64,000 nucleotides of DNA from a virus (lineage: Duplodnaviria; Caudoviricetes): IMG/VR virus record IMGVR_UViG_3300043010_000145, one strand, 5' to 3'. Of this stretch, positions 15,546-61,167 are shown piece by piece. The notes beneath the pieces are model-generated. The model was given only the letters and a program-made list of their open reading frames with translations. It did not search any database and was not told the DNA's origin. Every line of letters begins with the position of its first letter. Positions within the stretch are counted from its first letter, which is position 1. Made by a program: the position numbers and the translations under genes.

Positions 15546-15711
15546 AAGCAGAAAGAGTTTTCTTTCTGCTTTTCTTTTCGCTTAGCAGAAGCAAGCCTCC
15601 TCATACTTCGGAAACCTTGCTTCTGCCTGATATTAGTTATTTCTTATATTAAACTAAGGCACGAGACCTCGCTTTCTTTCATTCCATTCAAGAAACCGGA
15701 CTTCGTGCCTT

Positions 15712-15950
15712 GTCTTGCACCAGTTTTTATCTAACCGTAGTTTTTGTCTTGCCCTAGTTTTCATCTAACCGCAGTTTTTGTCTTGCCCTAGTTTTCATCT
15801 AACCGCAGTTTTTGTCTTGCCCTAGTTTTCATCTAACCGCAGTTTTTGTCTAGCCGTAGTAATTGTCTAGCCGTAGCTTTTATCTAGCCACAGTAATTGT
15901 CTAGCCATAGCTCCCGCATAGCCTCACCATTTTCTTGCCCTAGTTTCTTT
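15712..15950. repeat. 17/34-bp tandem repeats
   Basis: AGTTTTCATCTAACCGC-AGTTTTTGTCTTGCCCT about 3.5 copies, then degenerate TCTAGCC(G/A)TAG 17-mers. Confidence 0.9.
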
Positions 15951-16041
15951 TCAGCCACATTTCCATTTTGCCCGCTGACATTTTGCCCAATATTTAGCAA
16001 AAAACAATATGATTTGTGTAAAACTTAGAAAGGAGAACATC

Positions 16042-17749: not shown

Positions 17750-18124
17750 TCACTTTTTAAAAGTATAAACTACACCGTCATAATACACGATAGCATAGCC
17801 ATTTCTTTCACCCGAACATTGTCTGCCGTTAGTACATCTGTTAACCATTTGTCTTGTTGTCTTGTCTAATGTGAACTTACTTGTAAACTCTTTCCAAAAC
17901 TCTTGACTTCGTTCGGATTCTGCAACAGTTTCTACACTCCAAAGCGGCAAGCTTTCCTTAAATTGAACCATATCTTGAATTGTGCTGTCTGCCTGAGCAT
18001 AAAAAGATTGTTCCGCTTCTTGCTGTTCTGCCGTTTTATCTTCGTAGAACTCAAATGTTTCTGTTAATGAATTTTCTTGCATGGTAATCATAACCTCCAA
18101 TTCATAAAGATATATCTTTTTCAA
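17750..18124 (-). CDS. Hypothetical protein
   Basis: 124-aa ORF followed by a hairpin terminator. Confidence 0.55.
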   Translation of the reverse strand: MKKIYLYELEVMITMQENSLTETFEFYEDKTAEQQEAEQSFYAQADSTIQDMVQFKESLPLWSVETVAESERSQEFWKEFTSKFTLDKTTRQMVNRCTNGRQCSGERNGYAIVYYDGVVYTFKK

Positions 18125-22388: not shown

Positions 22389-25300
22389 CTTTAAAGAACC
22401 ATTTACAAGTTTTATTTCTAACCTTATTCACTCTTCTTTCTTCTTTGCTGACACAGCCTACACAGATTTTTGTAGCTGCTGTCGAAGATTCAGACGATAC
22501 AGTTCTGTCATTTACGGTAGACACTTTCTTTACCGATTCCACGGGCAACCAGTCGGAAAGCTACACGGGCGGGAAAGTGTACGATTTATCTACGGTTAGC
22601 GAAGTTGCTTCTGTTACCAATACGGGAAGTTCTTGCTATATACGAGCCAAGGTAACGACAAATGATTGGGACGATTATGTAACATGTTATTTTCTTTCTG
22701 ATTGGATAATGAAACCTGACGGGTATTATTACTACATGAAAGCAGTTCAGCCAAATGAAACTGTAACTATTTTCGAGGGTATTGAATTTGCAGATGGTTT
22801 AGTAAAAGAATCCAATAAAAGATTGTCTAAATCTGTTACGGTTGGCATTTCCGTTGATGCAATCACAGACGAGTTAGAAGCAGATTTCACTTCTGACACA
22901 CCTTGGGCTGCTCTGCTTGCTTATACACCAGAATTACCAGAGGAAGATGCTGATGTTGATACGGATACAGATTCTAACTCGAACTCTAATTCCAATTCTA
23001 ATTCCAACAGCAATACAGCAAATTCTAATAATGCAACTAACAGCAACACTTCCACAAACGGAGCAAATGAAATTGTTCTGCCTGATGATAAGATTGTAAC
23101 CGTTGAAAAGAATGTAGTTTCTACGGGTATCAATACAAATTTAGGTTATCTTGTAGCTTTATTGTTTGCAGCAGCTGCCTTACTTATTCTGATTTATCTG
23201 CACAAAGATTCCTTTACACCGACAATGCAGAATAAGACATTATCTTTATTTGCCTTATTTGCTCTTTTCGGTTCTGCAAGCATTTGTACTGCGGGAACAT
23301 ATTCCTACATTACTTCTACTGACCAAGGGATTGATAATAAAGTTTCTTTTGCCGCTTATGAGCCAAAAGCATTTCTTGAAACTGGGGGTAATTTCAATAG
23401 TCATATTCCGTATGGTACAACGGCTATTGTTTTTACAGATGAATCCGCACCAGCTTCTGCAAGTTTGATAGATGTTTCCGAAGATAAAGATAATTCTGTT
23501 GTTGGCTGGTCTGATAATGATACTTTCTATGTTTCCTCTCAACAAGACGGTGTGATAATTTATGCGAATGAATTATCCGATAATATGTTCTCTTATCAGT
23601 CTGATTTGGAAAGTATTGATTTTACAAATTTAAACACAAAAGATGTTACAACAATGGCGAGTATGTTCGAGGGCTGCAGTAGTCTGCAAAGTCTAGACCT
23701 TTCTAGTTTCGATACTTCCAATGTTACAAATATGTATTATATGTTTGGCGATTGCACGGAGTTGGAAACCTTAGATATTTCTAATTTTGACACTTCCAAG
23801 GTTGAGAATATGTCATATATGTTTTTCAGTTGCGAGGACTTAGGAACACTTGACCTGACACATTTTGATACATCAAATGTAACAACAATGGAACGAATGT
23901 TTCACGATTGTATGAATTTAACATCTTTAAATGTGAAAGGTTGGAATACTTCAAATGTAACTAACATGTCAAATATGTTTGCTTATTGTGAATTGTTGAC
24001 TTCATTGAATGTTTCTAGTTTCGATACAAGCAATGTTACAGATATGAGTTGCATGTTCTATTATGACCGTGGCTTAGAAAAGCTAAATATTACGAATTTT
24101 GATACTTCCAAGGTAACAACAATGCAAGGAATGTTCTATTCTTGTTCAAGTATTAAGACATTAGATGTTTCCAAACTCGAAACAAAGAATGTAACAAGCA
24201 CTAATGCAATGTTCGGGTATATGACTAGCCTGACAACTCTTTATGCAGAGAAAGACCCAACAGTAAGCAATGTAACAAATTCAAAGAATATGTTCTATGG
24301 CGATACTGTTCTGAAAGGAACGATTAAATACAATAGCAGCTATGTTACAGTTTCTTACTATAATTTCAAAGGGTATTTAACGAAGAAAGTATCCACTTAT
24401 GCTTTACTTTCAGGCACAGATTTCGCTGATGCCATTCCATCTTCTGCTACAAAGATTGTATTCACAGACAGTACTGCACCAGCTAGTGCCGAGTTAATTG
24501 ATATGACAGATGGCCAAGACGGTTCTGTTGTAGCTTGGCTTGACGGTACAATATTGTATATTTCCAGTCAAAAGAGCGGGCAAGTCATTTATGCACCAAC
24601 AAATGCGAGTGGAATGTTTGAGAATTTGACAAATATTGTTTCTATTGATTTGAGTAATTTAGATACAACTAAGACAACAAATATGAAAGGAATGTTCTAT
24701 AACTGTTCTTCCTTAACTGATGTGAACACCGATAAATTAGACACAACGAGTGTTACAGATATGTCATTTATGTTCGGTAAATGCTCTGCTTTAACAGATG
24801 TTGATACAAGCAATTTTACAACTTCAAAGGTAACAACTTTCGAGGGTATGTTCAACGGATGTACTTCGCTTACAGATTTAGATTTATCTAACTTTACAAC
24901 GAGTGCTGCTACAAATACTTCATTTATGTTTGCAGCTTGCTCTAACCTTAAAACCGTAGATATTTGTCATTGGAGTTTTGCCAATGTTACAGATTTAAAT
25001 AGTATGTTCCAAGGTGATTCAGCCTTAACTACAATCTATGCAAGCAGAACACCAGATTTGCAGAAAGTTACCGCACACAGCAATATGTTTGTAGGAGATA
25101 CAAATCTTGTTGGCGAAACTTCTTTCGATTCTGCCAACGTTGATGCAAATTATTTTAATTTAAACTCTTATTTGACGAAGCATGATGACGATAGCCTGAC
25201 TTATATTATGAATACTGGTTTATTTGTAAGAGATAATATATCCTCTGATATGACAGAAGTTATCTTTACGGGTATAACGGCACCAGTAGGTGTAGCTTTA

Positions 25301-28250: not shown

Positions 28251-28640
28251 ATGTTTCAAAAATACCGCAACTTATTCACACTCAACACCGATTCCCGCTA
28301 TCCCTTGCTTCTTATTCTTGCTTATACTTGCCTGAATATTTGCTTTTTATCTTGTGCAATCTATCTTCGCCACTTAGTCTTAACCAACACAATAGACTTA
28401 CCAACAACTTCCCCGCTGCCATTAGCAATTTTTAGTGCTTGTGTAGTATTTGCCCTAGTGATTTTTGCAACCAGCTTAATTTTAATCCTCAGTCGAGCCA
28501 CTCGCCTATTCTGTGTGGATACTTCTAAGCTCACCTATTCACTTGTTTACATTCTAGGTGGTTCTATTGCTTTTCTTTGCTTGTACTATATTGTGCTTTA
28601 CTGTTTGTACTTATATTACAATCTGGCTACCTTCGGATAA
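28251..28640 (+). CDS. Membrane protein, about 3 TM
   Basis: AGAAAGGA RBS, hydrophobic segments, terminator. Confidence 0.7.
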   Translation: MFQKYRNLFTLNTDSRYPLLLILAYTCLNICFLSCAIYLRHLVLTNTIDLPTTSPLPLAIFSACVVFALVIFATSLILILSRATRLFCVDTSKLTYSLVYILGGSIAFLCLYYIVLYCLYLYYNLATFG

Positions 28641-29138: not shown

Positions 29139-30677
29139 ATGGCAATACATTTCTACAAAGGACACTTAACAGGCGATTACTTAGATGATGCTCTTTGCGA
29201 TAGGCTCCTTAAAATTCAACAGCTTTCCGAAGAAGGTGTTTCATTTGAAGCATTAAGGCATATCATATATGATTTAACACCAGAGCATATTGCACAAGTC
29301 ATGCAAACCAAAGAACCAATTTCACCCGAAACACTTGCACCCGAAGAAACTGGAACATTGACCTCTTTACAAACCGTTGGTGTTGCCTATATGTATCTTG
29401 CCAAGCGATTACTCTTAGCCGATTCCGTTGGTTTTGGTAAAACTCCGCAAGTTGCTGGTTTAATCAGATATATGCAAGAATTATCCCCAGATAAACAACC
29501 GCCCCGTTTTCTATATTGCACAAAAGCTAGTCTAATCGACAAAGACCACAGCGAGTTAATTCGCTTCACCAACTTACCCGTTCAACTATTACACGGTACA
29601 ACAAGTAAGCTAAAAAAAGAACTTGCTAAAAATCCAGATAGTTCCTATGTTGCACCGCATTCCATTATAAAAAATGCCACATTTCAAGAATGGCTGCTCC
29701 TTCACCCAGATGTTTTCGATATTATTGTTATAGATGAATCTGGTGCAGTTGGAACGGCTGGCACAACAGATTTCACCAAACCCGCTCAGCGAATTTGCAG
29801 TATGTCAGACCGAGTGATTTTGTTAAATGCCACACCATTCGAGTGTCGCTTAGATTCCTTTTGGAGTCAGCTCAATCTTGTAGACCCTACATTATTGCCT
29901 TCCCGTACAGAATTCCGCAGAATGTTCCAGCAGCAAGAATTTGACGGGTACTCTTGGCATTTCGTAGAAAAATACAAAAACCCCGCAGAGTTTAAAGAAG
30001 CAATACAACTTCGCTTTTTATCTCGCAAACGAATTACAACAGGCGGAACTATGACAAACTGTTCCGCAGAACTGATTACCCTAGGTAAGTCTGCTATACA
30101 AAAGAAGCTTGATGCCCTAACTACACAACATCAGCTTGTCTATGATTGTCCGAGCTTGATTGACAAAGATATTGATACCGATGTATCTACAACACCAAAA
30201 CTAGCCAAAACATTGGAACTTGTGCAATCACACCCAGATGAGCCAAGAATTCTAATTTATTGCCCGTATATCGAAGCACAAGCAGCTATACAACAGACTT
30301 TACAGCAATATGGATACAATACTCTTATTTTAAACGGACAAACTAAGCAAGATGACCGCTTAGCCATTACACAGCAGTTTACAAACAATGAAAAGCAAAT
30401 TCTCATAACCAATGTTATGGAGGGTATGAACCTAGGTAATTGCCACATGCTCATTTACTACACCTTATGCCCTAGTGCCAGCAAAATCGTGCAAGTGGAA
30501 GGTCGTATTACTCGTGAGCAAAATATCCAAGACAAACATGTTTATGTTTTAGCTACAAAAGGTAGAGAAATTAGCTATATACATAAAACGATAGCAAACA
30601 GAGCACGAGCTATGCAAGAGTTCCAAGGCAGAGATTTTAGCATGGTGCTTGACTTGTTAGAACAGGCGGGAGTTTAA
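29139..30677 (+). CDS. SNF2-like SF2 helicase/ATPase
   Basis: LADSVGFGKT (Walker A), VIDES, NATP, EGMNL, QVEGRITR. Confidence 0.85.
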   Translation: MAIHFYKGHLTGDYLDDALCDRLLKIQQLSEEGVSFEALRHIIYDLTPEHIAQVMQTKEPISPETLAPEETGTLTSLQTVGVAYMYLAKRLLLADSVGFGKTPQVAGLIRYMQELSPDKQPPRFLYCTKASLIDKDHSELIRFTNLPVQLLHGTTSKLKKELAKNPDSSYVAPHSIIKNATFQEWLLLHPDVFDIIVIDESGAVGTAGTTDFTKPAQRICSMSDRVILLNATPFECRLDSFWSQLNLVDPTLLPSRTEFRRMFQQQEFDGYSWHFVEKYKNPAEFKEAIQLRFLSRKRITTGGTMTNCSAELITLGKSAIQKKLDALTTQHQLVYDCPSLIDKDIDTDVSTTPKLAKTLELVQSHPDEPRILIYCPYIEAQAAIQQTLQQYGYNTLILNGQTKQDDRLAITQQFTNNEKQILITNVMEGMNLGNCHMLIYYTLCPSASKIVQVEGRITREQNIQDKHVYVLATKGREISYIHKTIANRARAMQEFQGRDFSMVLDLLEQAGV

Positions 30678-30681
30678 TTCT

Positions 30682-32064
30682 ATGGCAACAATTTTACAAT
30701 GGTTACACAAAGATGATGTGTGTACCACAATACAGCTAACCGATGACGGTATGGTGCAGTTCGAGAACCATACATCAGACCCTTTTCTTTGTGCATTTGG
30801 CACATTGCCAAGTCCAGTGGATTTTGGCGAATTTGATGCTTTACTCAAAACAAGATTTTGCCCGAAACGTGGCAAGTATGCCGATTATATGCTTGCTAAA
30901 AATTTAGGCATTGATAAAGCCAAAGTAGGCGAGCAGTTAGTTGATATCAATCATGGTATGGTTATTGATGACTTTTTCTGGTTAAAAGCACCAGAAGAAA
31001 ATCTGACATTTGCACAAGTTCGTTCCAAACTAGGTATATCAGGCAAAAAAACGAGTTGGCAGAATCTATCAACAAAACCACTTCGGACTGACAATTTTTA
31101 TTCTAAGCTGGCTGTTACAACCAAAGCAAGCCAAGTGAAATATGCCAAAAATGGCTGGTTGATTAAAAGAGATACTTATGCTTGCGAGGGCTTGTGCGAA
31201 GCTTTAAATTACTTAATCAGTCGGTATGTCAAGGATTTAGATATTTTAGAGTATCGTTTACTTCCGCAAGAAGTGGAAGGCAGAGGAGTTTGTGCTTCAC
31301 CAATTTTTACAGACAGTAACGATATTGAGATTTTTACACAATGGGATATTATACAAAAGTTTGATTTATATCCTGTTTTGTCTATGTATCAGGATAATGG
31401 TGCAGAATTGCTTGCTCAAACTATTGCTATGACAAGCGATATATTGGGTATCACTACTCACGATTATATTCACCGTATGCTTATGTGGGATGCCCTCACG
31501 ATGAATTTAGACAGACATTACAATAATTGGGGTTTTGGTAGGCGACAAGACGGTACATTTTGCTATATACCATATTATGACCAAGGTTTAACATTACACG
31601 GTTATTCTTTGTTGGGTATACAGAAAGGTGTAAAAGAGTGTGTGTACGATGCTAGACCTCGTATGTATGCAGCCAGTTTTGATGACTTAGCTTTAATGCT
31701 AGATTCTTCTTTAATTTTGCAGATTGACCTTGACGGACTGGTTGGGTGCTTAAAACGGCAGCACAAGAAATTCCGTAAAATTGGCGGGGTTTTATACGAG
31801 GAATATGTTGTACTAGAAAATTTCTTATATAAACGACTTCGTAATACAGAAGGCACGATTTGGAAAGAAAATCCTGAAAAACCGTCCACTGCAAAGTATA
31901 GGAAGTATTTCGAGCAACATGCTGATTCTTTACCAGATAGCTGTGTGCCAGAACAAAGACATCTGTTGGGTACGGACACTTCTAACACATTAGCCGAAGA
32001 AGTTTATGGTAATCATTATTGCCACGAAGGTGAAAGTATCACAGTTGAGGAAATTGATTACTAA
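30682..32064 (+). CDS. HipA/CtkA-like kinase
   Basis: DALTMNLDRHYNNW and PYYDQG catalytic motifs. Confidence 0.7.
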   Translation: MATILQWLHKDDVCTTIQLTDDGMVQFENHTSDPFLCAFGTLPSPVDFGEFDALLKTRFCPKRGKYADYMLAKNLGIDKAKVGEQLVDINHGMVIDDFFWLKAPEENLTFAQVRSKLGISGKKTSWQNLSTKPLRTDNFYSKLAVTTKASQVKYAKNGWLIKRDTYACEGLCEALNYLISRYVKDLDILEYRLLPQEVEGRGVCASPIFTDSNDIEIFTQWDIIQKFDLYPVLSMYQDNGAELLAQTIAMTSDILGITTHDYIHRMLMWDALTMNLDRHYNNWGFGRRQDGTFCYIPYYDQGLTLHGYSLLGIQKGVKECVYDARPRMYAASFDDLALMLDSSLILQIDLDGLVGCLKRQHKKFRKIGGVLYEEYVVLENFLYKRLRNTEGTIWKENPEKPSTAKYRKYFEQHADSLPDSCVPEQRHLLGTDTSNTLAEEVYGNHYCHEGESITVEEIDY

Positions 32065-32529: not shown

Positions 32530-32919
32530 ATGAGCATAATTGATGATATTAAAGAGTTCCACCAAGTTTTCTTTACCGACCAGCTCCACGAGTTAGGTCT
32601 AGACCAGCCTGATGCAATCATCTCTAAATACCCACAACAGCAACAAAATACCGAATCCGTATCCATGCAAGCCACACCTGAGCAAATGCAACAGCCACAG
32701 CGGCAAGCTATGAATGGATATAATCAAATGCAACAGCAGATGCCTATGCAATCTGCATATAGCACTATGGGCAGTATGTCTATGGGAGGAATTGGTGGCG
32801 GTGGCTTTAATTCCATGGGTTCTATGGGAAGCGGTAGCCTAGGCGGGCAGTACTCTATACCAGATTCTGGGGGGTATTCCCTTGCAGATATTGATTTTGG
32901 TGATGATGACGATTTTTAG
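32530..32919 (+). CDS. Gln/Met/Gly-rich low-complexity protein with acidic-aromatic tail
   Basis: AAGGAGG RBS; ends DIDFGDDDDF. Confidence 0.75.
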   Translation: MSIIDDIKEFHQVFFTDQLHELGLDQPDAIISKYPQQQQNTESVSMQATPEQMQQPQRQAMNGYNQMQQQMPMQSAYSTMGSMSMGGIGGGGFNSMGSMGSGSLGGQYSIPDSGGYSLADIDFGDDDDF

Positions 32920-33005
32920 ATATATCTGATTATTTATGCTATAATTTGGTTAGAGAGTAATACAAGTTTAAGTATATCAAATTTATGCGGTGTAGCTTAA
33001 TGACA

Positions 33006-33198
33006 ATGGTGCGAACCTTTGACACACATAAAATTGTGGGAGGTTCGCACCTATTTTTAGTTAGATGATGACAGTATTTGTGTTTAATTGGAATGAGCAA
33101 CAGGTTTTGTTGGTTTTTGTGGAGTGGTATGCTACAATAAAAATGTAAAAAGAAACAGATTTGAGAGAAAATGCTATTATTTTTGTATTCTTTTTACT
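33006..33198 (+). promoter_or_regulatory. CRISPR leader 1
   Basis: GGTGCGAACC...GGTTCGCACC inverted repeat; homologous to leader 2. Confidence 0.85.
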
Positions 33199-34254
33199 GT
33201 TGCACTCCATACGGAGTGCGTGGATTGAAATCTTGGATTTTTTGCAATTCTAACAAGTCAGCCAGCAGGTTGCACTCCATACGGAGTGCGTGGATTGAAA
33301 TTTCATTACTTTTAGTAATATCTTCTGTAATAGCCAGTTGCACTCCATACGGAGTGCGTGGATTGAAATTTCTGTATCTTTGTCTTTGTCTTTGTCTGCT
33401 TCTACGAGTTGCACTCCATACGGAGTGCGTGGATTGAAATATAAATTGGAGCATAATCATAGGACATGCCCGACGTTGCACTCCATACGGAGTGCGTGGA
33501 TTGAAATGCAATACAACAGATAGGAATAGGCATAGCCTACATGTTGCACTCCATACGGAGTGCGTGGATTGAAATATAAGATTTTTTTCACGGACCAGCT
33601 CCACGAGTTGTTGCACTCCATACGGAGTGCGTGGATTGAAATATTATCAGGTTCGAAGGTGCAAGTATACCCATAGGTTGCACTCCATACGGAGTACGTG
33701 GATTGAAATTTCTATACCTAGTATGTCAAAGATACAGGTACAGTAGTTGCACTCCATACGGAGTGCGTGGATTGAAATATCGAAATATATCTGCCTTGAT
33801 ACATGCCGATTTTGTTGCACTCCATACGGAGTGCGTGGATTGAAATGAATTACTAATGCAATAAATGCTAGTAAAATCAGGTTGCACTCCATACGGAGTG
33901 TGTGGATTGAAATTCCACTCTGTGTGCTCAATGCTTACTGTATCGCCGTTGCACTCCATACGGAGTGCGTGGGTTGAAATATCTGCACCAAGCAAAACAT
34001 AGCACAAATCTTTATGTTGCACTCCATACGGAGTGCATGGATTGAAATTATCATTAATATTGTATAATTGAAGCCATGTTTTTTCCGTTGAACTCAATAC
34101 GGAGTTCATAGAGTTCATGGATTGAAATAATACATACAGCCTTACAGCAATGTTGCACTCCATACGGAGTGCGGGGATTGAAACGAAAGTGCCAGTGATG
34201 GATTACAAAATAACATATAGTTGTACTCCTTACGAGTGTGTGGGTTATCTAAAT
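33199..34254 (+). CRISPR. Type I-C array 1: 16 repeats (trailer repeats degenerate), 15 spacers
   Basis: 33-bp repeat GTTGCACTCCATACGGAGTGCGTGGATTGAAAT; spacers 34-38 nt, one of 23 nt. Confidence 0.98.
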
Positions 34255-34279: not shown

Positions 34280-36469
34280 TTGCCAAACCAATCTAAAAAA
34301 TATATTGCACATAAGCGAGCAGACGGCACAGAGCAGTCGCTCGAAACACATCTGCAAAATGTAGCTGATAAAACAAGTTTCTTTTCTGCCCAATTCGGTT
34401 GCCCAACTTGTGGTTCTGTAATTGGTTATAGACATGATGCAGGTAAGTATTCCGCTGAATTTCAGACACGAATAAAAGAACATGGACCAAAGGTAGACCA
34501 TTCTACTTTTGGTGCAATTGGTTTAAAAAACCTACCCGGCTTACGAATGTTTTTGGGTATGCCTATTGCTTGTCATCATACAGGCTTGATTAACACGATG
34601 TTATCCGATAATTCAACTACTCCTAAAACATTTCAAGAGCGAATGAGTGATACTTATGTGATACCTTCCGTGTCCGTGGATTTGCCTAGTATTAAACAAG
34701 GTGATAAAACCTTCAATGCTTGTGTACAAGAGAGAAATAGCAAAATAGCAAATGTTAAAGATACGTTTGCCTATTCTTTTTACATTCGTATGTTATTATC
34801 TTGCCTTGTCGATGCCGATTACTTGGACACAGAAGCTTTTATGACCAATAATCGTGTACAGCGAGGGTATAACATATCTATGCTCAATCTACGAGATAGG
34901 TTAAACGATTATATTAAACCTTGGTTGTCTAATACAGATTTAACTACTGTTGGTGGTCATCGTACACAGATATTAAAAGAATGTATTACATCAGGTACAA
35001 ATAGCGAGCAAGGTTTGTTTACTCTTACAGTACCAACAGGTGGAGGTAAAACGGTATCCTCGTTGGCTTTTGCTTTAAATCATGCTATTGCAAATAAGCT
35101 AGACCGTATCATTTATGTCATACCTTACACAAGTATTATTGAGCAAAATGCACAAGTTTTTAGGAATATTTTAGGTGAAGACATTGTTCTAGAACATCAT
35201 TCCTCAGCCGATTTTGATGATAAAGAGGGTATTGATGAATATAGACTGAAATTAGCAACAGAAAATTGGGATATACCCGTAATTGTTACAACAAGTGTAC
35301 AATTTTTTACATCTTTTTATGCAACAAAAACATCTAAAGTACGAAAGTTGCATAATGTAGCAAATAGTGTGGTGATTTTCGATGAAGTGCAAATGTTGCC
35401 TAGACATATTTTATTACCATGCTTGAAAGTAATAAATACTTTGGTATCATTTTATAATACTACGACTATTTTATGTACTGCTACACAGCCTGCTTTTAAT
35501 ACATTAGGCATTTGGGACAAGCAACCTATGGAAATATGTCATACAGTCAACGAGCAATTTGCTTATTTTGACCGTGTAACTTATGAATATCTAGGCGATA
35601 ACTTGGCAACGGATACCTTTTATGACAAACTCATTACCTCTTATAATACTTATAAACAAGTACTTTGTATTGTAGACAGTAAGCAGAGGGCACAAAAGAT
35701 ATTTGATACTTTGCAAGATAAAGGCCTTACTGTTATGCATTTATCCGCATCTATGACACCATATCACCGCAAGCGAGCTGTTAAGCAAATTAAAGATATG
35801 CTCGCAAATAATGTGCCTGTCATTGTTGTGGCAACAACAGTTGTTGAGGCTGGTGTAGATTTAGATTTCCCTATTGTGTATAGACAAATAGCTGGCATGG
35901 ATTCAATTATACAGGCTGCTGGCCGTTGTAACCGCAACGGAAATCGTTCTAAACTGGATAGTTTTGTATATATTTTTGATTTTGCACAAAATAAGAGTTG
36001 GCTGAAGAGACAAGTAGAATATGTGGAAACACTTAAATATTTGCAGATAGACGTGAATCTTTTAAAAGACATAAATGCTTTGCAAAAGTATTTTTCTGAG
36101 TTGTATAATTTAGCCCAAGGTGGAGGTGGCCATAACAGTTTAGACGACAATGGTGTATTAGATTGTTTCTCTAAATTTACTCCCCAGTACATTGATGCAA
36201 GTGCTAAATTCGATTTTTTTGACACGGAAAATGGTGGTTTAACTTTATATATAGATTACGATTTGTATACTAGTATTGCTAGTAAGGAAATTGTTACAAA
36301 TGCGGATTATCGGGTATTAAGTCAGCATGCTGTATCTATAACAAAGCAGCGAGCTAGTGAATTACAAAATGATAATATCATATTACCAGCTTTTGGTACG
36401 GACTATTGTTTTGTATTGATTAACCCAGAATATTATGATACCAAATATAAAGGGTTATTATACCAATAA
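34280..36469 (+). CDS. cas3: CRISPR-associated helicase/nuclease Cas3
   Basis: HD domain (HDAGK, HH, DADYLDT), VPTGGGKT, DEVQ, TAT, QAAGRCNR. Confidence 0.95.
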   Translation: MPNQSKKYIAHKRADGTEQSLETHLQNVADKTSFFSAQFGCPTCGSVIGYRHDAGKYSAEFQTRIKEHGPKVDHSTFGAIGLKNLPGLRMFLGMPIACHHTGLINTMLSDNSTTPKTFQERMSDTYVIPSVSVDLPSIKQGDKTFNACVQERNSKIANVKDTFAYSFYIRMLLSCLVDADYLDTEAFMTNNRVQRGYNISMLNLRDRLNDYIKPWLSNTDLTTVGGHRTQILKECITSGTNSEQGLFTLTVPTGGGKTVSSLAFALNHAIANKLDRIIYVIPYTSIIEQNAQVFRNILGEDIVLEHHSSADFDDKEGIDEYRLKLATENWDIPVIVTTSVQFFTSFYATKTSKVRKLHNVANSVVIFDEVQMLPRHILLPCLKVINTLVSFYNTTTILCTATQPAFNTLGIWDKQPMEICHTVNEQFAYFDRVTYEYLGDNLATDTFYDKLITSYNTYKQVLCIVDSKQRAQKIFDTLQDKGLTVMHLSASMTPYHRKRAVKQIKDMLANNVPVIVVATTVVEAGVDLDFPIVYRQIAGMDSIIQAAGRCNRNGNRSKLDSFVYIFDFAQNKSWLKRQVEYVETLKYLQIDVNLLKDINALQKYFSELYNLAQGGGGHNSLDDNGVLDCFSKFTPQYIDASAKFDFFDTENGGLTLYIDYDLYTSIASKEIVTNADYRVLSQHAVSITKQRASELQNDNIILPAFGTDYCFVLINPEYYDTKYKGLLYQ

Positions 36470-36498: not shown

Positions 36499-36603
36499 AT
36501 TTAGAAGCAAAGTTTTTTTGTATTCCCACATTCTATGTTGTATACTGAGTTTGTAAATAAAAGCGAGTGCTTTTACTGCTTTTACACGGAAAGGGGCAAA
36601 TAT

Positions 36604-37278
36604 ATGGGAAAAGGTATAATCTTGCACGTCTGGGGAGACGGTGCTGTTTATAGCAGACCAGAGTTGAAAGTCGAACGATACAGTTATGATGTTATAACAC
36701 CATCTGCAGCAAGAGGTATTTTAGATAGTATATTGTGGCATCCCGGTATGGAATGGGTTATTGATAAAATACATGTTATCAAACCAATACAAAGGGCAAG
36801 TATACAGCGGCGAGAATTGAAAAAGGTAATATCTAGTCGAAATGCGGCCAATATGCAAGATATTAGTATTTTAACATCTGATACAAGCAATAGTACTCTA
36901 CGATATACATCTTATTTGAAGCAAGTTGAGTATGTCATTGAAGCACATTTTATTATGACACCGCAAGCACACCCAAGCGATTATGACGGTAAATTCTATA
37001 AAATGGCAATCCGGCGAATGAGTAACGGGCAATGCTACAAGCAGCCATATTTTGGTTGCAGAGAATTCCCTGTCCATTTTGAACTTTTACGAAGTCCAGA
37101 AGATATACCAAAGTCTTATTATGCCAATACGGACACATATGATTTAGGTGTTATGCTTTACGATATGGATTATCAGTACAATAAGCCAAGCACAGTTAGA
37201 AAGATATCACCCATATGGTATCATGCTATTATGCACAAAGGTGTTATTGATTTAACAAATGTGGAGTTATTACGATGA
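36604..37278 (+). CDS. cas5c: Type I-C Cas5 (Cas5c/Cas5d)
   Basis: RPELKVERYSYDVITPSAARGIL...PYFGCREF. Confidence 0.95.
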   Translation: MGKGIILHVWGDGAVYSRPELKVERYSYDVITPSAARGILDSILWHPGMEWVIDKIHVIKPIQRASIQRRELKKVISSRNAANMQDISILTSDTSNSTLRYTSYLKQVEYVIEAHFIMTPQAHPSDYDGKFYKMAIRRMSNGQCYKQPYFGCREFPVHFELLRSPEDIPKSYYANTDTYDLGVMLYDMDYQYNKPSTVRKISPIWYHAIMHKGVIDLTNVELLR

Positions 37279-39203
37279 TATTACAGGATTTAGTAGCATG
37301 CTACGATATGTTGGCAGAAGATGAAACAGTACAAATACCAAAGATGGGCTATTCTTTTAGCCCAGTAGACTGGTGTTTAGTAGTTAATGACCAAGGCGAT
37401 TTAGTGGGTATGTATACCTGTGAAAGTACAACAGGTGTTACACCTAGTAAGGACCAACCAAAATCTGAATCTAAATCAAAAGCTAAGAAGCAGAAAACAC
37501 TCCGAAAAACTATGCTTGTACCTATTTTACCACCTCGTACAAGGAATGTAGATGCAGGAGTATTATATGATAATTTAGAATATATGTTGGGTTATAATAG
37601 CTTAGGTTATACGGGCACGACAGTAGAAAAGTATGTAAATTTTAGAGATAAAAATACGGAATTTCTAAAAGATATTGATACACCCGCAGCCAAAGCTGTT
37701 GTGAATTTCTATGCAAATTGGTCTCCACAGAATATTTCTAATCATTCTATTATTTCTGAACTTGGACAAGTACAAAAAATAGATGGTAAACAAATGGCTG
37801 TTTTTGTTTACGAGGGCACAGGCGAGTATGTGCTGCAAGATGAAGAAATCAAAGCAAAATGTGATAGTACTTGTGCAAAAAGGTATGCAAAAGATTTCAT
37901 AAAGCAAACAGATGAAACTCAATCTGCCATATCTTTGGTTTCTGGCGATAAAGTTGATGCCACTTGCTATAAGCATACTCAGATTAAAGGATTGCATAAT
38001 TCTCAGCCTAGCGGTGCCTCTTTGGTATCCTTTAATGCAGACTCTTTTTGTTCTTACGGTTTAGAGCAGTCCTATAATGCACCTGTCGGTGTCATTGATA
38101 TGTATAAATATACAACAGCTCTTAATTATCTTATAAAAGCTGGTAGCGGATATAATCGAAGAATTGATGATACAACCACAATTGTGTATTGGTCTGCTGA
38201 TAAAAGTGTGAACGATATAGATTCAGACCTATTCAATACTGATAGTGCAAAGTTGACAGAAGTATTGCATTTATTACAAGGCAATACAACTACTATTACT
38301 GATAAACATCTGCAAGTAGATTTATCTGCACCTTATTTTATTGCTTTTTTTAAGCTAAATCATGGTGCAAGGATATATGTTGAGCGGTATATCACAACCA
38401 ATGTGGGCAATTTGTTGCAAGGTTCGTATAACCACTATAAGCGATTAGAGATGTTTAGAGCATCCTATGAATCAGCAAGCGGGGTAGCACCCTATCATAT
38501 TTTGCAACAAACACTTCGAGAAGCAGATAGAAAAGGTGAAACTTATTCTGGCAAGTTTGAGGGTAGTATACTATCTGATTTATATATGTCTATTGTAACA
38601 GATACACCTTATCCACAGGCTCTTGCTGATAGTATTATGAATCGTATAAGTAAGTCTATGCAAGATGATTACCAGATAAATTATACAAATATGTCTTTTT
38701 TGAAGGCGTATTTGATTAAGAATAAAAATCTACAAGGAGGAGAAAAATATATGGCATTAAATGAAGAATCTGAGAATACAATGTATAATATTGGTCGTCT
38801 AATTGCAGTTTGTGATTATGCACAAACCATTTATAGTAATGATAAGAGGACTAGACCAATTCGCAAAAAATATCTTGTAGGTGTAACGGAACACCCATCA
38901 AGCTTGTTACCGCAGCTCTTAGCAAAACACAATGTGTATGTAACAGCCCTCCTTGCCAAAGATACCGAAAAAAAGCATACAGGCACTTTCCTTGATAGAT
39001 GTACAGCAGATATTTTAGCAAAAATTGATAATGTGCCTGCAACTACAAAGCAAGAGGACCAGATGATGTGCTATTTAGGGTATTATCATCAGTTAAAAAA
39101 GTTCTATACAAAAAAAACTGATAAAGATACCGTAGATAAAGATACAATTGATGTCAATACAGATATGCAGTCCAATACAGAAACAACAGAAGGAGATGAC
39201 TAG
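37275..39203 (+). CDS. cas8c: Type I-C Cas8c/Csd1
   Basis: MILQDL start, LVSFN..SF.SYG..Q..NAP, LGYYHQ. Confidence 0.93.
   Translation: MILQDLVACYDMLAEDETVQIPKMGYSFSPVDWCLVVNDQGDLVGMYTCESTTGVTPSKDQPKSESKSKAKKQKTLRKTMLVPILPPRTRNVDAGVLYDNLEYMLGYNSLGYTGTTVEKYVNFRDKNTEFLKDIDTPAAKAVVNFYANWSPQNISNHSIISELGQVQKIDGKQMAVFVYEGTGEYVLQDEEIKAKCDSTCAKRYAKDFIKQTDETQSAISLVSGDKVDATCYKHTQIKGLHNSQPSGASLVSFNADSFCSYGLEQSYNAPVGVIDMYKYTTALNYLIKAGSGYNRRIDDTTTIVYWSADKSVNDIDSDLFNTDSAKLTEVLHLLQGNTTTITDKHLQVDLSAPYFIAFFKLNHGARIYVERYITTNVGNLLQGSYNHYKRLEMFRASYESASGVAPYHILQQTLREADRKGETYSGKFEGSILSDLYMSIVTDTPYPQALADSIMNRISKSMQDDYQINYTNMSFLKAYLIKNKNLQGGEKYMALNEESENTMYNIGRLIAVCDYAQTIYSNDKRTRPIRKKYLVGVTEHPSSLLPQLLAKHNVYVTALLAKDTEKKHTGTFLDRCTADILAKIDNVPATTKQEDQMMCYLGYYHQLKKFYTKKTDKDTVDKDTIDVNTDMQSNTETTEGDD
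38751..39203 (+). CDS. cas11: Internally translated Cas11 small subunit
   Basis: In-frame ATG (MALNEES..YNIGRL) preceded by AAGGAGG inside cas8c, as known for type I-C. Confidence 0.8.
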   Translation: MALNEESENTMYNIGRLIAVCDYAQTIYSNDKRTRPIRKKYLVGVTEHPSSLLPQLLAKHNVYVTALLAKDTEKKHTGTFLDRCTADILAKIDNVPATTKQEDQMMCYLGYYHQLKKFYTKKTDKDTVDKDTIDVNTDMQSNTETTEGDD

Positions 39204-39204
39204 T

Positions 39205-40089
39205 ATGACAGCTTTAAATAACAAATATGATTTTATATTGCTTTTTGATGTAACTGACGGTAACCCAAACGGAGACCCTGATGCAGACAATATGCCAAGA
39301 AGAGACTATGAAACAGGGCATGGTATTGTTACAGATGTTTGTATTAAACATAAAATCCGTAATTATGTCGAGCAAGTAAAAAAAGGCGAGGACGGTTATG
39401 ATTTATATATTAAGTCAGGTATTTCATTAAATACAAAAGATAATCAAGCTCTGGATGAATTAGGTGTTCCTAAATCTAAGACGAAATCAGGGAAAAAAGA
39501 TAAAGATACGGATAAAAAAATAAAAGAGTATATGTGCCATAAATATTTTGATATTCGTACCTTTGGTGCAGTTATGACAACATTTACACAAGGGGCATTA
39601 AATTCAGGACAAATAACAGGCCCAGTTCAACTTACTTTTGCTCGTAGTGTTGACCCTATTACTGTGAACAATTATACTTTGACTCGTTGTGTAATTACTA
39701 AGGAAGACGAAGCCGAAACTAAGAATAATACTATGGGTAAAAAACCTATGGTTTACTATGGCTTATATAAAATGTATGGACATATTAATGCAAATCTAGC
39801 AAACGATGTAACACATTTTTCCGAGGAAGACTTAGAGTTACTTTGGCAAGCAATCGAGGGTATGTTCGAATTGGACCATGCGGCTGCACGAGGAACTATT
39901 AATTTACGAGAGCTGATTATTTTCAAGCATGAATCTGTATATGGTAATTGTGCAAGCTATAAGCTGTTTGACCGTGTGCATATCACTAAAAAAGATGGTG
40001 TAGTATATCCAAGAGAATATTCTGACTATACTGTGGATATTGATACAAAAGATATGCCTGCAAATGTTACTCTGATTCGCAGAGGTTAA
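39205..40089 (+). CDS. cas7c: Type I-C Cas7/Csd2
   Basis: GNPNGDPDADNMPR, FDIRTFGAV, GPVQL, TMG.K. Confidence 0.95.
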   Translation: MTALNNKYDFILLFDVTDGNPNGDPDADNMPRRDYETGHGIVTDVCIKHKIRNYVEQVKKGEDGYDLYIKSGISLNTKDNQALDELGVPKSKTKSGKKDKDTDKKIKEYMCHKYFDIRTFGAVMTTFTQGALNSGQITGPVQLTFARSVDPITVNNYTLTRCVITKEDEAETKNNTMGKKPMVYYGLYKMYGHINANLANDVTHFSEEDLELLWQAIEGMFELDHAAARGTINLRELIIFKHESVYGNCASYKLFDRVHITKKDGVVYPREYSDYTVDIDTKDMPANVTLIRRG

Positions 40090-40123
40090 TATAATATAAA
40101 ATTTCTGATTTGAGGAAATTTTT

Positions 40124-40328
40124 AATGGTGCGAACCTTTAACACACATAAAAGTGCGGGAGGTTCGCACCTATTTTTTAGTTAAATGTTGTTAAATGTTG
40201 ACAGTATTTGGTGTTAGTTAGAATAAGCAACGAGTTTTTGTTGTTTTATGCAGAGGGTATGGTATAATAAAAATACAAAAAGAAATAGATTTAATGAAAA
40301 CTGCTATTATTTTTGTATTCTTTTTGCT
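40124..40328 (+). promoter_or_regulatory. CRISPR leader 2
   Basis: Diverged duplicate of leader 1. Confidence 0.85.
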
Positions 40329-41376
40329 GTTGCACTCCATACGGAGTGCGTGGATTGAAATACCTACACGGCTAGGCACGGGTATAGACTGGACTGTTGC
40401 ACTCCATACGGAGTGCGTGGATTGAAATTGTAGATATTGCATGCAGCCAAGTAATCCATTTAAGTTGCACTCCATACGGAGTGCGTGGATTGAAATATTT
40501 TTGTGTGTAGTACGGATACCATAGGTGTGTGAGTGTTGCACTCCATACGGAGTGCGTGGATTGAAATTACTAGCTATATGGATTTTGCTAAAAATCCGCT
40601 GGGTTGCACTCCATACGGAGTGCGTGGATTGAAATTTCAAAAATAAGCTTGGCTTGTGAATCATCATTAGGTTGCACTCCATACGGAGTGCGTGGATTGA
40701 AATAATAATTTAATCAATTTTTTAACTACAAAATAACAGTTGCACTCCATACGGAGTGCGTGGATTGAAATAGGAAAAGAAAAGCACAAGTCATTCGACT
40801 TGTGCTAGTTGCACTCCATACGGAGTGCGTGGATTGAAATCATCTTTTAAGATTCGTACTATGTCGAGTACATGTTGCACTCCATACGGAGTGCGTGGAT
40901 TGAAATCTCCGTGACCATACACAAGCCAAGACTGACTTCACGTTGCACTCCATACGGAGTGCGTGGATTGAAATAACCAAGCTACAACAGAAGCACCTGA
41001 AGGAACTGAGGTTGCACTCCATACGGAGTGCGTGGATTGAAATACTTGCAGGCAACAACCCGCCCCGCTTTATATTAGCAGGTTGCACTCCATACGGAGT
41101 GCGTGGATTGAAATTACGGTTTTACTGATACCCGTAGAAAGTGTATCATGTTGCACTCCATACGGAGTGCGTGGATTGAAATAGCCTATGTTAGCAATCT
41201 TTACCAATACACAGAGTTGCACTCCATACGAAGTGCGTGGATTGAAATCTGAAAGGAATGAGATAATTCTGCAACTAGCAGGCAAAATTGCACTCCATAC
41301 GGAGTGCGGGGATTGAAATATTACTTGTACAGGCAAAGAACTCACAGGTGATAGTTGCACTCCATACGGAGTGGAT
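40329..41376 (+). CRISPR. Type I-C array 2: 16 repeats (last truncated), 15 spacers
   Basis: Same 33-bp repeat; no spacer shared with array 1; terminator at 41385-41415. Confidence 0.98.
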
Positions 41377-41469: not shown

Positions 41470-42585
41470 ATGGGACTAAGCAAATTTATTTTATCACTAT
41501 CCGTGTATATCATTAAACTATTTACATTTTGGTTGCCCCAAGATAGAAATCGCATCACATGTATTACTTGCACGGGCAAAGAGCTAACAGGAGATATGGA
41601 GCAAGTGTACAACTACCTTGAAACACATACTAATTATAAGTTAAAGAAAATTTGCTACAACTACAAGCCAACCATTAAGAGCAAACTAGGTTACTTTTGG
41701 AATTGCTTGCACCAATACATTGCCCTAAAACGTAGCAAATTAGTCATTATCAACGACAACAACTACATCATCTCCCGCCACAAGCCAAAACACACACAAG
41801 TTATTCAACTTTGGCACGCCTGTGGTGCTGTGAAAAAATGTGGCAATCAAACCAAAAGAGCTTACAAAATCAAAAATTATGACATAGTTACAGCCACATC
41901 ACCAGCTTGGCGAGATGTCTACACACAAGCATTTAATGTCAATCGCTGGCAAGTACATGTAACGGGCATGCCTCGTATTGATTACTTTTTGTCTGATTAC
42001 ACCGATAAAATTGCTGCTTTTTATGATAAATACCCAATGTTGAAAGATAAAAAAATTGTATTGTATGCACCAACATTTCGTGGCACAACCACTAAGAAAG
42101 ATATACATTTAGATGTGCCAAATTATGCAGATTTACTTTCTAAGCTAAATACTGACACAAATGATTATGCTATTGTCTGCAAATATCATCCGCTTTTGCA
42201 GATTAAGACAGAGCAAACGGATACTATCATAGATTGCTCAGGCGAGGATTTATACACCTTAATGCACATTTGCGATTGCTTGATTACTGATTACAGCAGT
42301 ATTATTTTCGACTACTCCTTGTTGGGTAAACCTTGTATTTTATATGTTCCTGACTTAGACAATTACACAGACAATGTTGGTTTAAACTTAACCATAGATG
42401 AATTGCAAGATTTTGCCACAGTTATCAAAAGTGAAGAAGATTTACCCACAGCCATTCAGGGTATCGACACCACCACAGCATCTGTTAAAGCAAAAGAATT
42501 TGCAAACAAATATATGCCAAATGCAGATACCAATAACTGCAAAAGAGTTTGTGAATTAATTGAGCAGAGAATGACTTATTATTGA
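41470..42585 (+). CDS. CDP-glycerol glycerophosphotransferase family (TagB/TagF-like)
   Basis: QLWHACGAVKK, GMPRID, LYAPTFR, ITDYSSIIFDY. Confidence 0.9.
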   Translation: MGLSKFILSLSVYIIKLFTFWLPQDRNRITCITCTGKELTGDMEQVYNYLETHTNYKLKKICYNYKPTIKSKLGYFWNCLHQYIALKRSKLVIINDNNYIISRHKPKHTQVIQLWHACGAVKKCGNQTKRAYKIKNYDIVTATSPAWRDVYTQAFNVNRWQVHVTGMPRIDYFLSDYTDKIAAFYDKYPMLKDKKIVLYAPTFRGTTTKKDIHLDVPNYADLLSKLNTDTNDYAIVCKYHPLLQIKTEQTDTIIDCSGEDLYTLMHICDCLITDYSSIIFDYSLLGKPCILYVPDLDNYTDNVGLNLTIDELQDFATVIKSEEDLPTAIQGIDTTTASVKAKEFANKYMPNADTNNCKRVCELIEQRMTYY

Positions 42586-47186: not shown

Positions 47187-47259
47187 ACAATACTTTACTA
47201 GCTTGCCTATTGCTATATCTGGTTAAATAAGGGAAATAGAGAGCCATATTGAAATTGAG

Positions 47260-47400
47260 CTAGAATAAGATTGAGCCATGTTTAGATTAAGCCAGAATAA
47301 GATTAAGCCAGAATAAGATTAAGCCAGAATAAGATTAAGCCAGAATAAGATTAAGCCAGAATAAGATTGAGCCAGAATAAGATTTAGCCAAAAAAGATAG
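47260..47400. repeat. 16-bp tandem repeat GATTAAGCCAGAATAA
   Basis: About 6-8 copies. Confidence 0.9.
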
Positions 47401-47502
47401 AGCAAGATAATCTGTATTTTTCTGTATTTTATTGGTTAGGACAGGCGAGCAACCTAGCATCACTTCGTTCTGCTGACCGCTCGCCTATCTTTGTAGGCAG
47501 CT

Positions 47503-47712
47503 AGCACAAGGTTTAGCAGAGCAAGGTTTAGCAGAGCAAGGTTTAGCAGAGCAAGGTTTAGCAGAGCAAGGTTTAGCAGAGCAAGGTTTAGCAGAGCAAG
47601 GTTTAGCAGCACAAGGTTTAGCAGAGTAAGGTTTAGCAGAGCAAGGTTTAGCAGAGCAAGGTTTAGCAGAGCAAGGTTTAGCAGAGCAAGGTTTAGCAGA
47701 GCAAGGTTTAGA
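47503..47712. repeat. 15-bp tandem repeat AGCAAGGTTTAGCAG
   Basis: About 14 copies. Confidence 0.95.
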
Positions 47713-47819
47713 TAAATCAACACATTTTAAATTTCAATAACTTAGATAGGCGGGATACCTCGTTTTCGTTTCACTCAAACGGACTTCCCGCCTATCGTTG
47801 TAGGTAGTTAAATTTAACC

Positions 47820-48160
47820 GTAGTTAAATCTAGCCATAGCTAAACCAAGGCAAAGTTAAATCTAGCCATAGCTAAACCAAGGCAAAGTTAAATCTAGCCA
47901 TAGCTAAACCAAGGCAAAGTTAAATCTAGCCATAGCTAAACCAAGGCAAAGTTAAATCTAGCCATAGCTAAACCAAGGCAAAGTTAAATCTAGCCATAGC
48001 TAAGCCAAGGCAAAGTTAAATCTAGCCATAGCTAAGCCAAGGCAGAATTATATACAGCCATAGCTAAACCAAGGCACAGATAAACTTAGCCGTAGCTAAA
48101 CCAAGGCAGAGCTAAATCTAGCCCTAGCTAAACCAAGGCAGATTTATATTCAGCCATATT
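47820..48160. repeat. 32-bp (2x16) tandem repeat AAAGTTAAATCTAGCCATAGCTAAACCAAGGC
   Basis: About 10 copies, degenerate at the right end. Confidence 0.95.
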
Positions 48161-48424
48161 ATATTTTTACTCACCCCTACCCCACCACCTTATCTAAAAC
48201 AAGATTGTGATAGAGCCAGCGGAAGATATAGAGCCAGAGAAAGAGCTTCAGCCAGAAGGTATAGAACGAGCAACGGTAACGGCTGACTCTATTACGGCAA
48301 GAACAATCGCCCCGATACTCGTACCATACGGGGTTTCATCTACTGCAAGATATTACTGCTGCCAGCGGTAGAGATTTATATAGTAAGAAGCAGGCGGAAG
48401 ACCTAAAGACTTTCCGCCTGCTTT

Positions 48425-48735
48425 TGTCTTAGCTCTATCTTGCCCTATCTTGCCTTGCCTTATCTTGTCTTGCCTTGCCTTGTCTTGCCTTGTCTCTTGT
48501 CTTAGCTCTATCTTGCCTTGCCTTATCTTGTCTTGTCTCTTGCCTTAGCTCTATCTTGCCCTACCTTGCCTTGCCTTGTCTCTTGTCTTATCTCTTACCT
48601 TGTCTTGCTCTATCTCTATCTTGCTCTATCTCTATCTTGCTCTGTTTTTCTTGCTCTATCTCTATCTTGCTCTGTTTCCTCTTGCTCTATCTCTATCTTG
48701 CTCTGTTTCCTCTTGCTCTATATTTGTCTTGCACC
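48425..48735. repeat. Pyrimidine-rich TCTTGC/CTATCT low-complexity repeats
   Basis: Direct inspection. Confidence 0.85.
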
Positions 48736-48879
48736 GTGATAATCAGCCTGCCCTTTCTTGTTCGGGTACTTCATAGCCCAGACACCTATCTGCTCGCCGC
48801 AATGTTTTCTTCTGTTGCTTCTTGCTTCTTGCTTCTTGTTTCTTGCTTCTTGCTTCTTGCTTGGGTATCTTCACTCAGC

Positions 48880-54539: not shown

Positions 54540-54556
54540 AGTCCGTCCCCTCTTTT

Positions 54557-55138: not shown

Positions 55139-55288
55139 ATTTTTATGCTCCTTTATACACACATATTAGCATAGAATAGTATATTATGCAATATCTTCAT
55201 AGCATTTCCTAGGGTATTCACTCCTAATTTTTAAATTTACAATACTAAAAACACAGGAATTCCCTACGGGAATTCCTGCTCTTTTTTC

Positions 55289-55909: not shown

Positions 55910-55922
55910 ATTTATCACTCCT

Positions 55923-56462: not shown

Positions 56463-56463
56463 T

Positions 56464-58632: not shown

Positions 58633-58657
58633 TTTCCGTCCTCTCCCTTTACCGCAT

Positions 58658-59224: not shown

Positions 59225-59261
59225 GCCGTACTACCTCTCCTTTTCCGTTTTATCTATCTGT

Positions 59262-59801: not shown

Positions 59802-59924
59802 TTTGTGTACCTCACTGTATCTGTCTATAATATACACCCATTTCCTACATATTACAAGCAAATAATAGCATATTTTACCTTCTTCACACCACAAAAAGAA
59901 AGCAGTACTCCGTACTGCTTTCTT

Positions 59925-60509: not shown

Positions 60510-60595
60510 AGCCCTTACCTCACAATCTTTTAGTACTCCATTATATAATAAAAGAAGTTCTGCTACCAGAACTTCTCCTTTTTTTTTCTTTTTAC

Positions 60596-61150: not shown

Positions 61151-61167
61151 TATTTTGCTCCTCAGTT

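Follow-up and report, generated by a model that had tools for sequence, protein, structure and literature searches.

The 64,000-nucleotide (nt) stretch of DNA analyzed here (the window), from the virus record IMGVR_UViG_3300043010_000145, carries a type I-C CRISPR (short palindromic repeats, clustered and regularly interspaced) island of ~8.4 kb, in which one spacer from each of two arrays resembles, without matching it exactly, the gene that directly adjoins the island on one side. Spacer 6 of array 1 resembles the upstream gene, which encodes the protein P0001, and spacer 15 of array 2 resembles the downstream gene, which encodes a TagF-like protein. Spacer 6 is best explained as an ordinary type I-C spacer that was taken from a diverged version of the upstream gene and that acts as a guide against a sibling element, with spacer 15 playing the same part for the downstream gene. 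The probability of this explanation is put at roughly 0.6, and the sibling itself is one that we infer and have not observed. In a first-pass annotation of the window, spacer 6 had been considered alone; its meaning shifts once the mirror match on the other flank is counted.

Spacer 6 aligns without gaps to positions 32561-32594 with 27 of 34 nucleotides identical. The mismatches fall at spacer positions 2, 3, 5, 6, 11, 14, and 17, such that all seven lie within the 17 nt proximal to the protospacer-adjacent motif (PAM), whereas positions 18-34 (the last 17 nt) are identical to the resident site. The coordinates, letters, match count, identical 17-nt end, and seed-side placement of the mismatches given in the first-pass annotation were all borne out by a recheck, and a repeat search of the window independently recovers the same pair of sites (family D4). 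The resident site covers codons 11-22 of the 129-residue open reading frame (ORF) at 32530-32919. In this frame, the spacer encodes HKIFFTDQLHE and the resident site encodes HQVFFTDQLHE, as the annotation had it. By codon position, five of the differences are at third positions and two are at first positions (Q/K and V/I, both conservative). The annotation had also named a shuffled-spacer control, and this control upholds the match: the best window matches of 300 shuffled versions of spacer 6 range from 20 to 23 of 34 and never exceed 23/34. By our own arithmetic, ~0.004 exact 17-mers are expected by chance for 30 spacers compared with the window. The proposal of a diverged copy, taken from the Gln/Met-rich gene upstream and bearing a coding signature, stands; a synonymous PAM loss, proposed along with it, is not shown, as described below.

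On the downstream side, spacer 15 of array 2 matches positions 41563-41596 at 29 of 34 nucleotides, with mismatches at positions 9, 12, 21, 24, and 30. All five differences are at third codon positions and silent, leaving the peptide ITCTGKELTGD unchanged. A scan of the 30 spacers against the window returned only spacer 6 and spacer 15 as outliers, the other 28 reaching at most 25/35. The same two stand out at the peptide level, where every spacer was compared with the window in six frames (scores of 51 and 60, with 60 shuffles reaching at most 39), and nucleotide or peptide matches to the window are confined to these two of 31 spacers. When both spacers are pooled, 10 of the 12 differences are on third codon positions (binomial p = 4e-4). 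Based on this bias, the most likely sources of both spacers are diverged, working versions of the flanking genes, meaning functional homologues at a similar distance and not the resident genes themselves. Silent-site divergence is 5/11 (raw) in each spacer/gene pair, which fits a single donor lineage, and the matched segments differ by ~15-20% overall (~20% for spacer 6). The matched sites lie in the directly adjacent genes, 605 bp (spacer 6) and 183 bp (spacer 15) from the arrays; given two hits in the window, the chance of finding one in each island-abutting gene is 2.8e-4. Chance resemblance, which has the AT-rich composition and nothing more in its favor, can be given next to no weight and is ruled out by the shuffles (at most 23/34), by the codon-phase signature of two independent hits (p = 4e-4), and by the position of both hits beside the island (p = 3e-4).

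A separate, borderline match was seen between spacer 12 of array 2 (41115-41149) and a giant DUF285 gene (23109-23143, minus strand). The two share 25 of 35 nucleotides with a 15-nt exact run, relative to a shuffle ceiling of 23, and the resemblance could be due to chance.

The annotation described the resident flank next to the spacer 6 look-alike as TCC, which is confirmed at 32558-32560, and proposed that a TTC PAM had been lost there through a synonymous change. The base that precedes this TCC is a T, which places a TTC one base out of register. Two histories are compatible with these letters, both of which retain the Phe-His pair. In one, which is possible, the source read TTT-CAT and presented the canonical TTC PAM that the resident TTC-CAC destroys. 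In the other, the source may have read TTC-CAT, as in the resident gene, and the spacer may have been acquired with a +1 slip. In type I-C systems, a spacer acquired from TTC with a +1 slip leaves a characteristic trace, namely a PAM that looks like TCN and is directly preceded by a T (Rao et al. 2017, PMC5602111). This trace is matched exactly by the resident TTC-C, so the donor may have had the flank of the resident gene. A loss through synonymous change is therefore not shown: the source allele was not found in any collection searched, the slip would also yield TTC-C, and nothing in the data indicates the direction of change that the word "lost" presupposes. Moreover, no true protospacer was found in IMG/VR or in phage and plasmid records for any spacer searched, and these results therefore yield no PAM. 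Published type I-C PAMs are TTC, then TTT, CTC, and TCC (PMC5602111), and TCC has been described as a weakly functional interference PAM in the Bacillus halodurans I-C system (Leenay 2016, as cited in PMC5602111). Since TCC is reported to be weakly functional, it cannot be called a dead PAM with confidence, and tolerance of spacer 6 would be more safely explained by its three mismatches in the seed (positions 2, 3, and 5) than by the TCC flank.

Within the window, neither spacer finds a target that would make it self-targeting. The resident sites carry seven and five mismatches and are flanked by TCC and TGT, respectively, which rules out plain autoimmunity within the 64 kb covered. Because of this case, we suggest that a partial self-match be read in codon phase before self-targeting or PAM loss is named.

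Guides against a sibling could arise as follows. A sibling replicon would be present in the same cell as the element, and Cas1-Cas2(-Cas4) proteins supplied in trans from outside the island would insert fragments of this sibling into the arrays. The I-C Cascade and Cas3 of the island would then, judging from their family membership, destroy siblings with matching alleles. Only spacers unable to attack the resident alleles would persist, for which the mismatches are plain and the resulting tolerance is presumed. Such a survivorship filter would account for the mismatches of spacer 6 on the PAM side (seed positions 2, 3, and 5) and for the non-PAM TGT flank of spacer 15, and the resident copies should be spared by both spacers. 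The simplest explanation for why both sources adjoin the island would be a capture hotspot at the equivalent locus of the sibling, with perfect self-matches subsequently purged; alternatively, there may be selection for linkage to the island. Array-proximal protospacer hotspots have been reported for the Escherichia coli type I-E system and for Pyrococcus, with nicking of the leader-repeat junction during integration as the cause (PMC5737086; PMC10011333). Provided that siblings have an equivalent array, such a hotspot would over-sample their flanks. CRISPR systems borne on mobile genetic elements are often without adaptation genes and aimed at competitors (PMC9071438; PMC7162821).

The same kind of hotspot could have acted on the element itself, with spacers taken from its own flanking genes and the targets changed afterwards by mutation or by recombination with a sibling allele. 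Documented self-spacer hotspots next to arrays would explain the adjacency directly, and the placement of seven of seven spacer 6 differences in the PAM-proximal 17 nt, with none in the distal 17, is expected of escape or of a breakpoint inside the site. Self-derivation is nevertheless considered unlikely. Escape needs one PAM or seed change, as opposed to the seven and five differences seen. In spacer 15, no mismatch falls in the seed (positions 1-8) and the silent changes are evenly spread, a pattern that resembles long divergence and not escape. In addition, each flanking gene is identical in the fetched contigs that reach it, with no sign of ongoing diversification.

Elsewhere in the window, a solitary type I-E-like repeat is found at 9726-9755. 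This repeat is unique in the window and has no cas genes with it. The ~51 nt directly after it (unit 9726-9807) resemble the last 16 codons and stop codon (9224-9274) of the gene at 8963-9274, with 41/54 positions matching. The two peptides are VCDKDWNFILSADFND and ICDKDWNFICSADFEE, and the resident site is preceded by AAT. From its sequence, the unit appears to be a second guide-like copy of a neighboring gene in the window, with a foreign repeat type.

This unit is relevant to a homing, or drive, explanation, in which the flank guides cut siblings at the island site, whether empty or otherwise occupied, and repair from the island-bearing copy spreads the island. Homing would extend, in function, the proposal of guides against a sibling. 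Such a cassette would eliminate or convert siblings, and repeat-plus-guide units of I-E type without cas genes would be a smaller version that uses a host effector. In its favor, there is one guide per flank, both are on the same strand and no more than ~0.6 kb away from the island, they leave the resident alleles immune, and the solitary I-E-like repeat likewise precedes a diverged copy of the tail of a neighboring gene. Homing is nonetheless judged a little less probable even than self-derivation. Cas3 degrades DNA processively and makes no clean break, and sequences that diverge by ~15-20%, as donor and resident do, are poorly suited to homologous repair. No homogenized tract is seen at the right-flank site, which lies just 183 bp from the island, and a capture hotspot accounts for the adjacency without drive. 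Finally, no sibling, empty site, or recombinant has been observed.

It is also conceivable, and highly improbable, that the two spacers are regulatory self-guides that allow Cascade to repress the neighboring genes through partial complementarity, in the manner of CreTA or CRISPR interference (CRISPRi). The guides do match adjacent genes, and the seed of spacer 15 is intact with respect to the resident gene. Type I Cascade leaves every sixth position of the target unpaired, and three of the five spacer 15 mismatches are on such positions. In contrast, spacer 6 is mismatched at seed positions 2, 3, and 5, the TGT flank of spacer 15 is outside the reported I-C PAMs (TTC, CTC, TCC, and TTT), and both sites are inside coding regions and not promoters. 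Thus, the combination of an intact PAM and an intact seed at a promoter or 5′ region that marks a CreTA-like guide is seen for neither spacer 6 nor spacer 15. The silent-site pattern, moreover, indicates capture from a homologue and not a guide shaped for its target.

Several observations weigh against the proposal of guides against a sibling. The sibling allele was not seen in any collection searched. The exact sequences of spacers 6 and 15 are absent from IMG/VR, as are four further spacers. A degenerate DNA pattern for H[QK][VI]FFTDQLHEL is absent from IMG/VR, GTDB genomes, and JGI metagenome contigs, and a corresponding pattern for the spacer 15 peptide is absent from the metagenome contigs. 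The tblastn check that the annotation had called for was run with the 129-residue protein against phage and plasmid records; it gave no match. When both arrays were compared with the same records, only repeat-to-repeat matches and one AT-rich 30/34 match (E = 0.3) were returned. At the protein level, no relative of P0001 and no relative of the TagF-like protein above 45% identity was found. The nature of the carrier counts on the same side: among the genes of the window, none was recognized as encoding a capsid, a terminase, or a replication or conjugation function. The spacer-match and cas1/2/4 scans cover this 64 kb window of a ~577-kb contig. Under a strict TTC PAM, the donor of spacer 15 must also differ by Cys to Phe at the flank. 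Lastly, the silent differences in spacer 6 are clustered, with five of six sites changed in the first half and none of five in the second (Fisher p ~0.013 by our own arithmetic), which also fits escape or a recombination breakpoint.

The island is encoded entirely on the plus strand in the order leader 1, array 1, cas3, cas5c, cas8c, cas7c, leader 2, and array 2 (Table 1). Cas8c (the large subunit), Cas5c, and Cas7c are the best PADLOC models for the three subunit genes. The cas3 gene is intact, with the Cas3c model spanning residues 4-723 and Cas3-HD spanning residues 21-184, and the predicted effector set is a complete I-C set. A search of IMG/VR with Cas7 returned no relative. The repeat is predicted to fold into a 7-bp stem with a 4-nt loop and a 12-nt 3′ tail (−12.9 kcal/mol, z = −3.6), in keeping with type I-C repeats, which measure ~32-33 nt, form a stable internal hairpin, and end in a 3′ tail of 11-12 nt that yields the 5′ handle of the CRISPR RNA. 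The repeats of the island match those in CRISPR arrays of Bacillus and Paenibacillus plasmids, a similarity that is restricted to the repeat. Leader regions 1 and 2 are versions of the same ~230-nt unit, with a mean column identity of 83% in their alignment. Since the repeats are degenerate at the far ends of both arrays, the arrays are read left to right and position 1 of each spacer is PAM-proximal.

Table 1 Features of the type I-C island and of the genes that flank it
Feature	Position	Strand	Remarks
Flanking gene L, P0001, 129-residue ORFan	32530..32919	+	Strong ribosome-binding site, with the Shine-Dalgarno AAAGGAGG 7 nt upstream
Resident look-alike of spacer 6	32561..32594	+	27/34; TCC at 32558-32560, TTC at 32557-32559
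Leader 1	32920..33198	+	Terminator hairpin (~33009-33058), promoter-like region, AT-rich leader; duplicated as leader 2
CRISPR array 1	33199..34252	+	33-nt repeats, 15 spacers; degenerate repeats at far end
Array 1 spacer 6	33576..33609	+	34 nt; subject of the finding
cas3 (HD nuclease + helicase, I-C type)	34280..36469	+	Pfam DEAD, Helicase_C, Cas3-like_C_2; PADLOC Cas3c 8e-196, Cas3-HD 1e-23
cas5c	36535..37278	+	PF09704 1e-33; PADLOC Cas5c 8e-60
cas8c (Csd1)	37275..39203	+	PF09709 7e-101; PADLOC Cas8c 6e-90
cas7c (Csd2)	39148..40089	+	PF05107 1e-95; PADLOC Cas7c 8e-93
Leader 2	40090..40328	+	Directly after cas7, usual place of cas4-cas1-cas2
CRISPR array 2	40329..41374	+	15 spacers, truncated terminal repeat
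Array 2 spacer 15 (oldest)	41320..41353	+	Probable diverged copy of downstream gene
Flanking gene R, 371-residue CDP-glycerol/ribitol phosphotransferase-like (TagB/F family)	41470..42585	+	PF04464 1e-62
Resident look-alike of array 2 spacer 15	41563..41596	+	Flank TGT; seed positions 1-8 intact

No cas1, cas2, or cas4 gene was found among the ~58 ORFs of the 64 kb window that were scanned, which include all ORFs of at least 250 residues. Leader 2 begins ~40 nt after cas7, and neither the gap behind cas7 (which ends at 40089) nor the one that separates array 1 from cas3 has room for adaptation genes. Both arrays nevertheless appear active. A contig from another sample (L001) is 100% identical to the window over 20 kb save for array 2, which has one additional spacer at its leader end (L001 positions 17833-17867). 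The simplest reading of this difference would be a recent, polarized spacer acquisition, and it may alternatively reflect a spacer loss in the variant represented by the window. Recent acquisition by an island with no cas1, cas2, or cas4 would require adaptation proteins from elsewhere on the element or from the host. A search of GTDB for the repeat returned one near-identical I-C repeat (three differences) in a metagenome-assembled genome (MAG) labeled Clostridiaceae bacterium (JAPXME010000080.1; L007). The corresponding array lies at a contig end with spacers unrelated to those of the island, and no Cas8c match was found in this MAG, which is incomplete at 1.7 Mb. The repeat may provide a weak hint at the host lineage.

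Two stand-alone Cas3-HD-like proteins (PF18019) are also encoded in the window, at 14652-15545 and 16009-17124, and the highest-ranking PADLOC model for them is that of the HD portion of Cas3e (type I-E). Both are without a helicase or nearby I-E cas genes, and 17- and 34-nt tandem repeats (15710-15923) lie between them.

The flanking genes themselves are close to unique. P0001 is composed of a short N-terminal segment, a body rich in Gln, Met, Gly, and Ser that is predicted to be disordered, and an acidic tip that ends in Phe (DFGDDDDF). Its Atlas model has a predicted local distance difference test (pLDDT) score of 0.34 and gives no usable Atlas match. The protein belongs to no Pfam, PHROG, or PADLOC family and has no homologue beyond itself in 5.8e9 protein clusters. 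Matches among 1.84e9 representatives (a TPR repeat and a low-complexity stretch) were judged to be chance, those in the PDB are FLAG-tag linkers and not homologues, and the neighboring 129-residue ORF at 28251-28640 was rejected as a paralogue upon comparison. The linker and tip are similar to the C-terminal linker and tip of bacterial single-stranded DNA-binding protein (SSB; DFDDDIPF in E. coli), and by analogy P0001 could act as a decoy or adaptor for SSB-binding proteins. The TagF-like gene starts ~95 bp past the end of array 2, and the closest non-self match of its product among 5.8e9 proteins is 45% identical. The nucleotide sequence of the P0001 gene is the same in all six contigs obtained from different samples; for the TagF-like gene, the comparison covers L001, which alone among these contigs extends that far and has an identical copy. 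Because both flanking genes are near-unique to the element, a donor of the two spacers, at 80-85% DNA identity, must be a close relative of the element.

Just upstream of the island (29139-32064) are a SNF2-family helicase, with weak ZorD, BrxH, and DrmD-like matches, and a 460-residue protein with weak PDC-M03A and PHROG matches, which may constitute a defense gene pair. The best non-self match of the 460-residue protein is 35% identical, and its distant homologues (L008-L011) are found among PARP, HD, GmrSD, ArdC, and SpaA genes.

The element is rare and is present as identical copies in a handful of metagenomes, the longest contig being 577 kb. Samples with the element include JGI 3300043085, 3300049151, 3300049152, and 3300035504 as well as SRR11793927 and SRR11793836. 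No housekeeping gene was seen in the window, where most ORFs are without a family match. Along with the features described above, the window holds several DNA methyltransferases, defense-type genes, one tRNA, an M60 peptidase, genes for giant surface proteins with DUF285/leucine-rich repeats (LRR), and long tandem-repeat tracts. Taken together, these observations suggest a carrier of very large size, mobile or extrachromosomal, in a Bacillota host. At 47254-48862, ~1.6 kb is occupied by dense, near-perfect tandem repeats (periods of 15, 16, 32, 43, and others) with little coding potential. The minus strand at 53931-63182 contains about a dozen back-to-back ORFs of 180-240 residues, and none of those scanned matches Pfam.

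The type of pattern seen here, CRISPR guides on a mobile element against array-adjacent genes of its siblings, is already known (Medvedeva et al. 2019; Faure et al. 2019). The portogloboviruses SPV1 and SPV2 carry mini-CRISPR arrays with spacers against siblings, in which the targets are near the arrays and the corresponding locus of the carrier is mutated (Medvedeva et al. 2019, PMC6858448). For prophage mini-arrays, spacers have been reported against the neighboring genes of viruses that are close relatives (Faure et al. 2019, as cited in PMC6858448). As in these cases, the carrier here looks non-chromosomal, the arrays have leaders and show spacer turnover, and the spacers would be aimed at close relatives. 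For both spacers, the resident site likewise differs in a way that should preclude targeting, and the target is in the directly adjacent gene. The island departs from SPV1 and SPV2 in having 15 spacers per array and a full I-C interference set, where the viruses borrow that of the host. In addition, the pattern is found in one spacer per array, and no viral hallmark gene was seen in the 64 kb window of its carrier. Between SPV1 and SPV2 the match is 100%, whereas the sibling of the present element is one that we infer. The origin of the target proximity in SPV1 and SPV2 was stated to be unclear (PMC6858448), and the island offers a clean bacterial example of array-adjacent sibling targeting, the cause of which is still called unclear in the literature.

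Arrays and interference genes without cas1, cas2, or cas4, with spacers aimed at competitors and adaptation presumably supplied in trans, are shared with CRISPR systems of plasmids (Pinilla-Redondo et al. 2021, PMC9071438) and huge phages (Al-Shayeb et al. 2020, PMC7162821), the latter including an I-C variant without Cas1 and Cas2 (PMC7162821). In contrast to the systems in these two surveys, cas3 of the island is intact in both its HD and helicase domains, and the surveys report no guides against both genes that flank a cassette. The I-C system of Pseudomonas aeruginosa pKLC102 is likewise located on a mobile element and used in inter-element conflict (Leon et al. 2021, PMC7913775). Spacers are known to be acquired preferentially from DNA adjoining active arrays (Levy et al. 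2015, as cited in PMC5737086; Shiimori et al. 2017, PMC5737086). In those experiments, the spacers were self-derived and obtained without selection, whereas the present spacers differ by 15-20% from the resident flanks; based on this difference, the hotspot would have acted on the locus of a sibling, or the flanks would have been replaced later. The combination of complete I-C effectors, two active-looking arrays, and a symmetric pair of flank guides is unusual and makes the island a good substrate for separating capture hotspot, sibling exclusion, and CRISPR-based drive. The novelty lies in the setting: an island with a complete set of I-C effectors and no adaptation genes, with two leader-equipped arrays and one flank-directed guide on each side.

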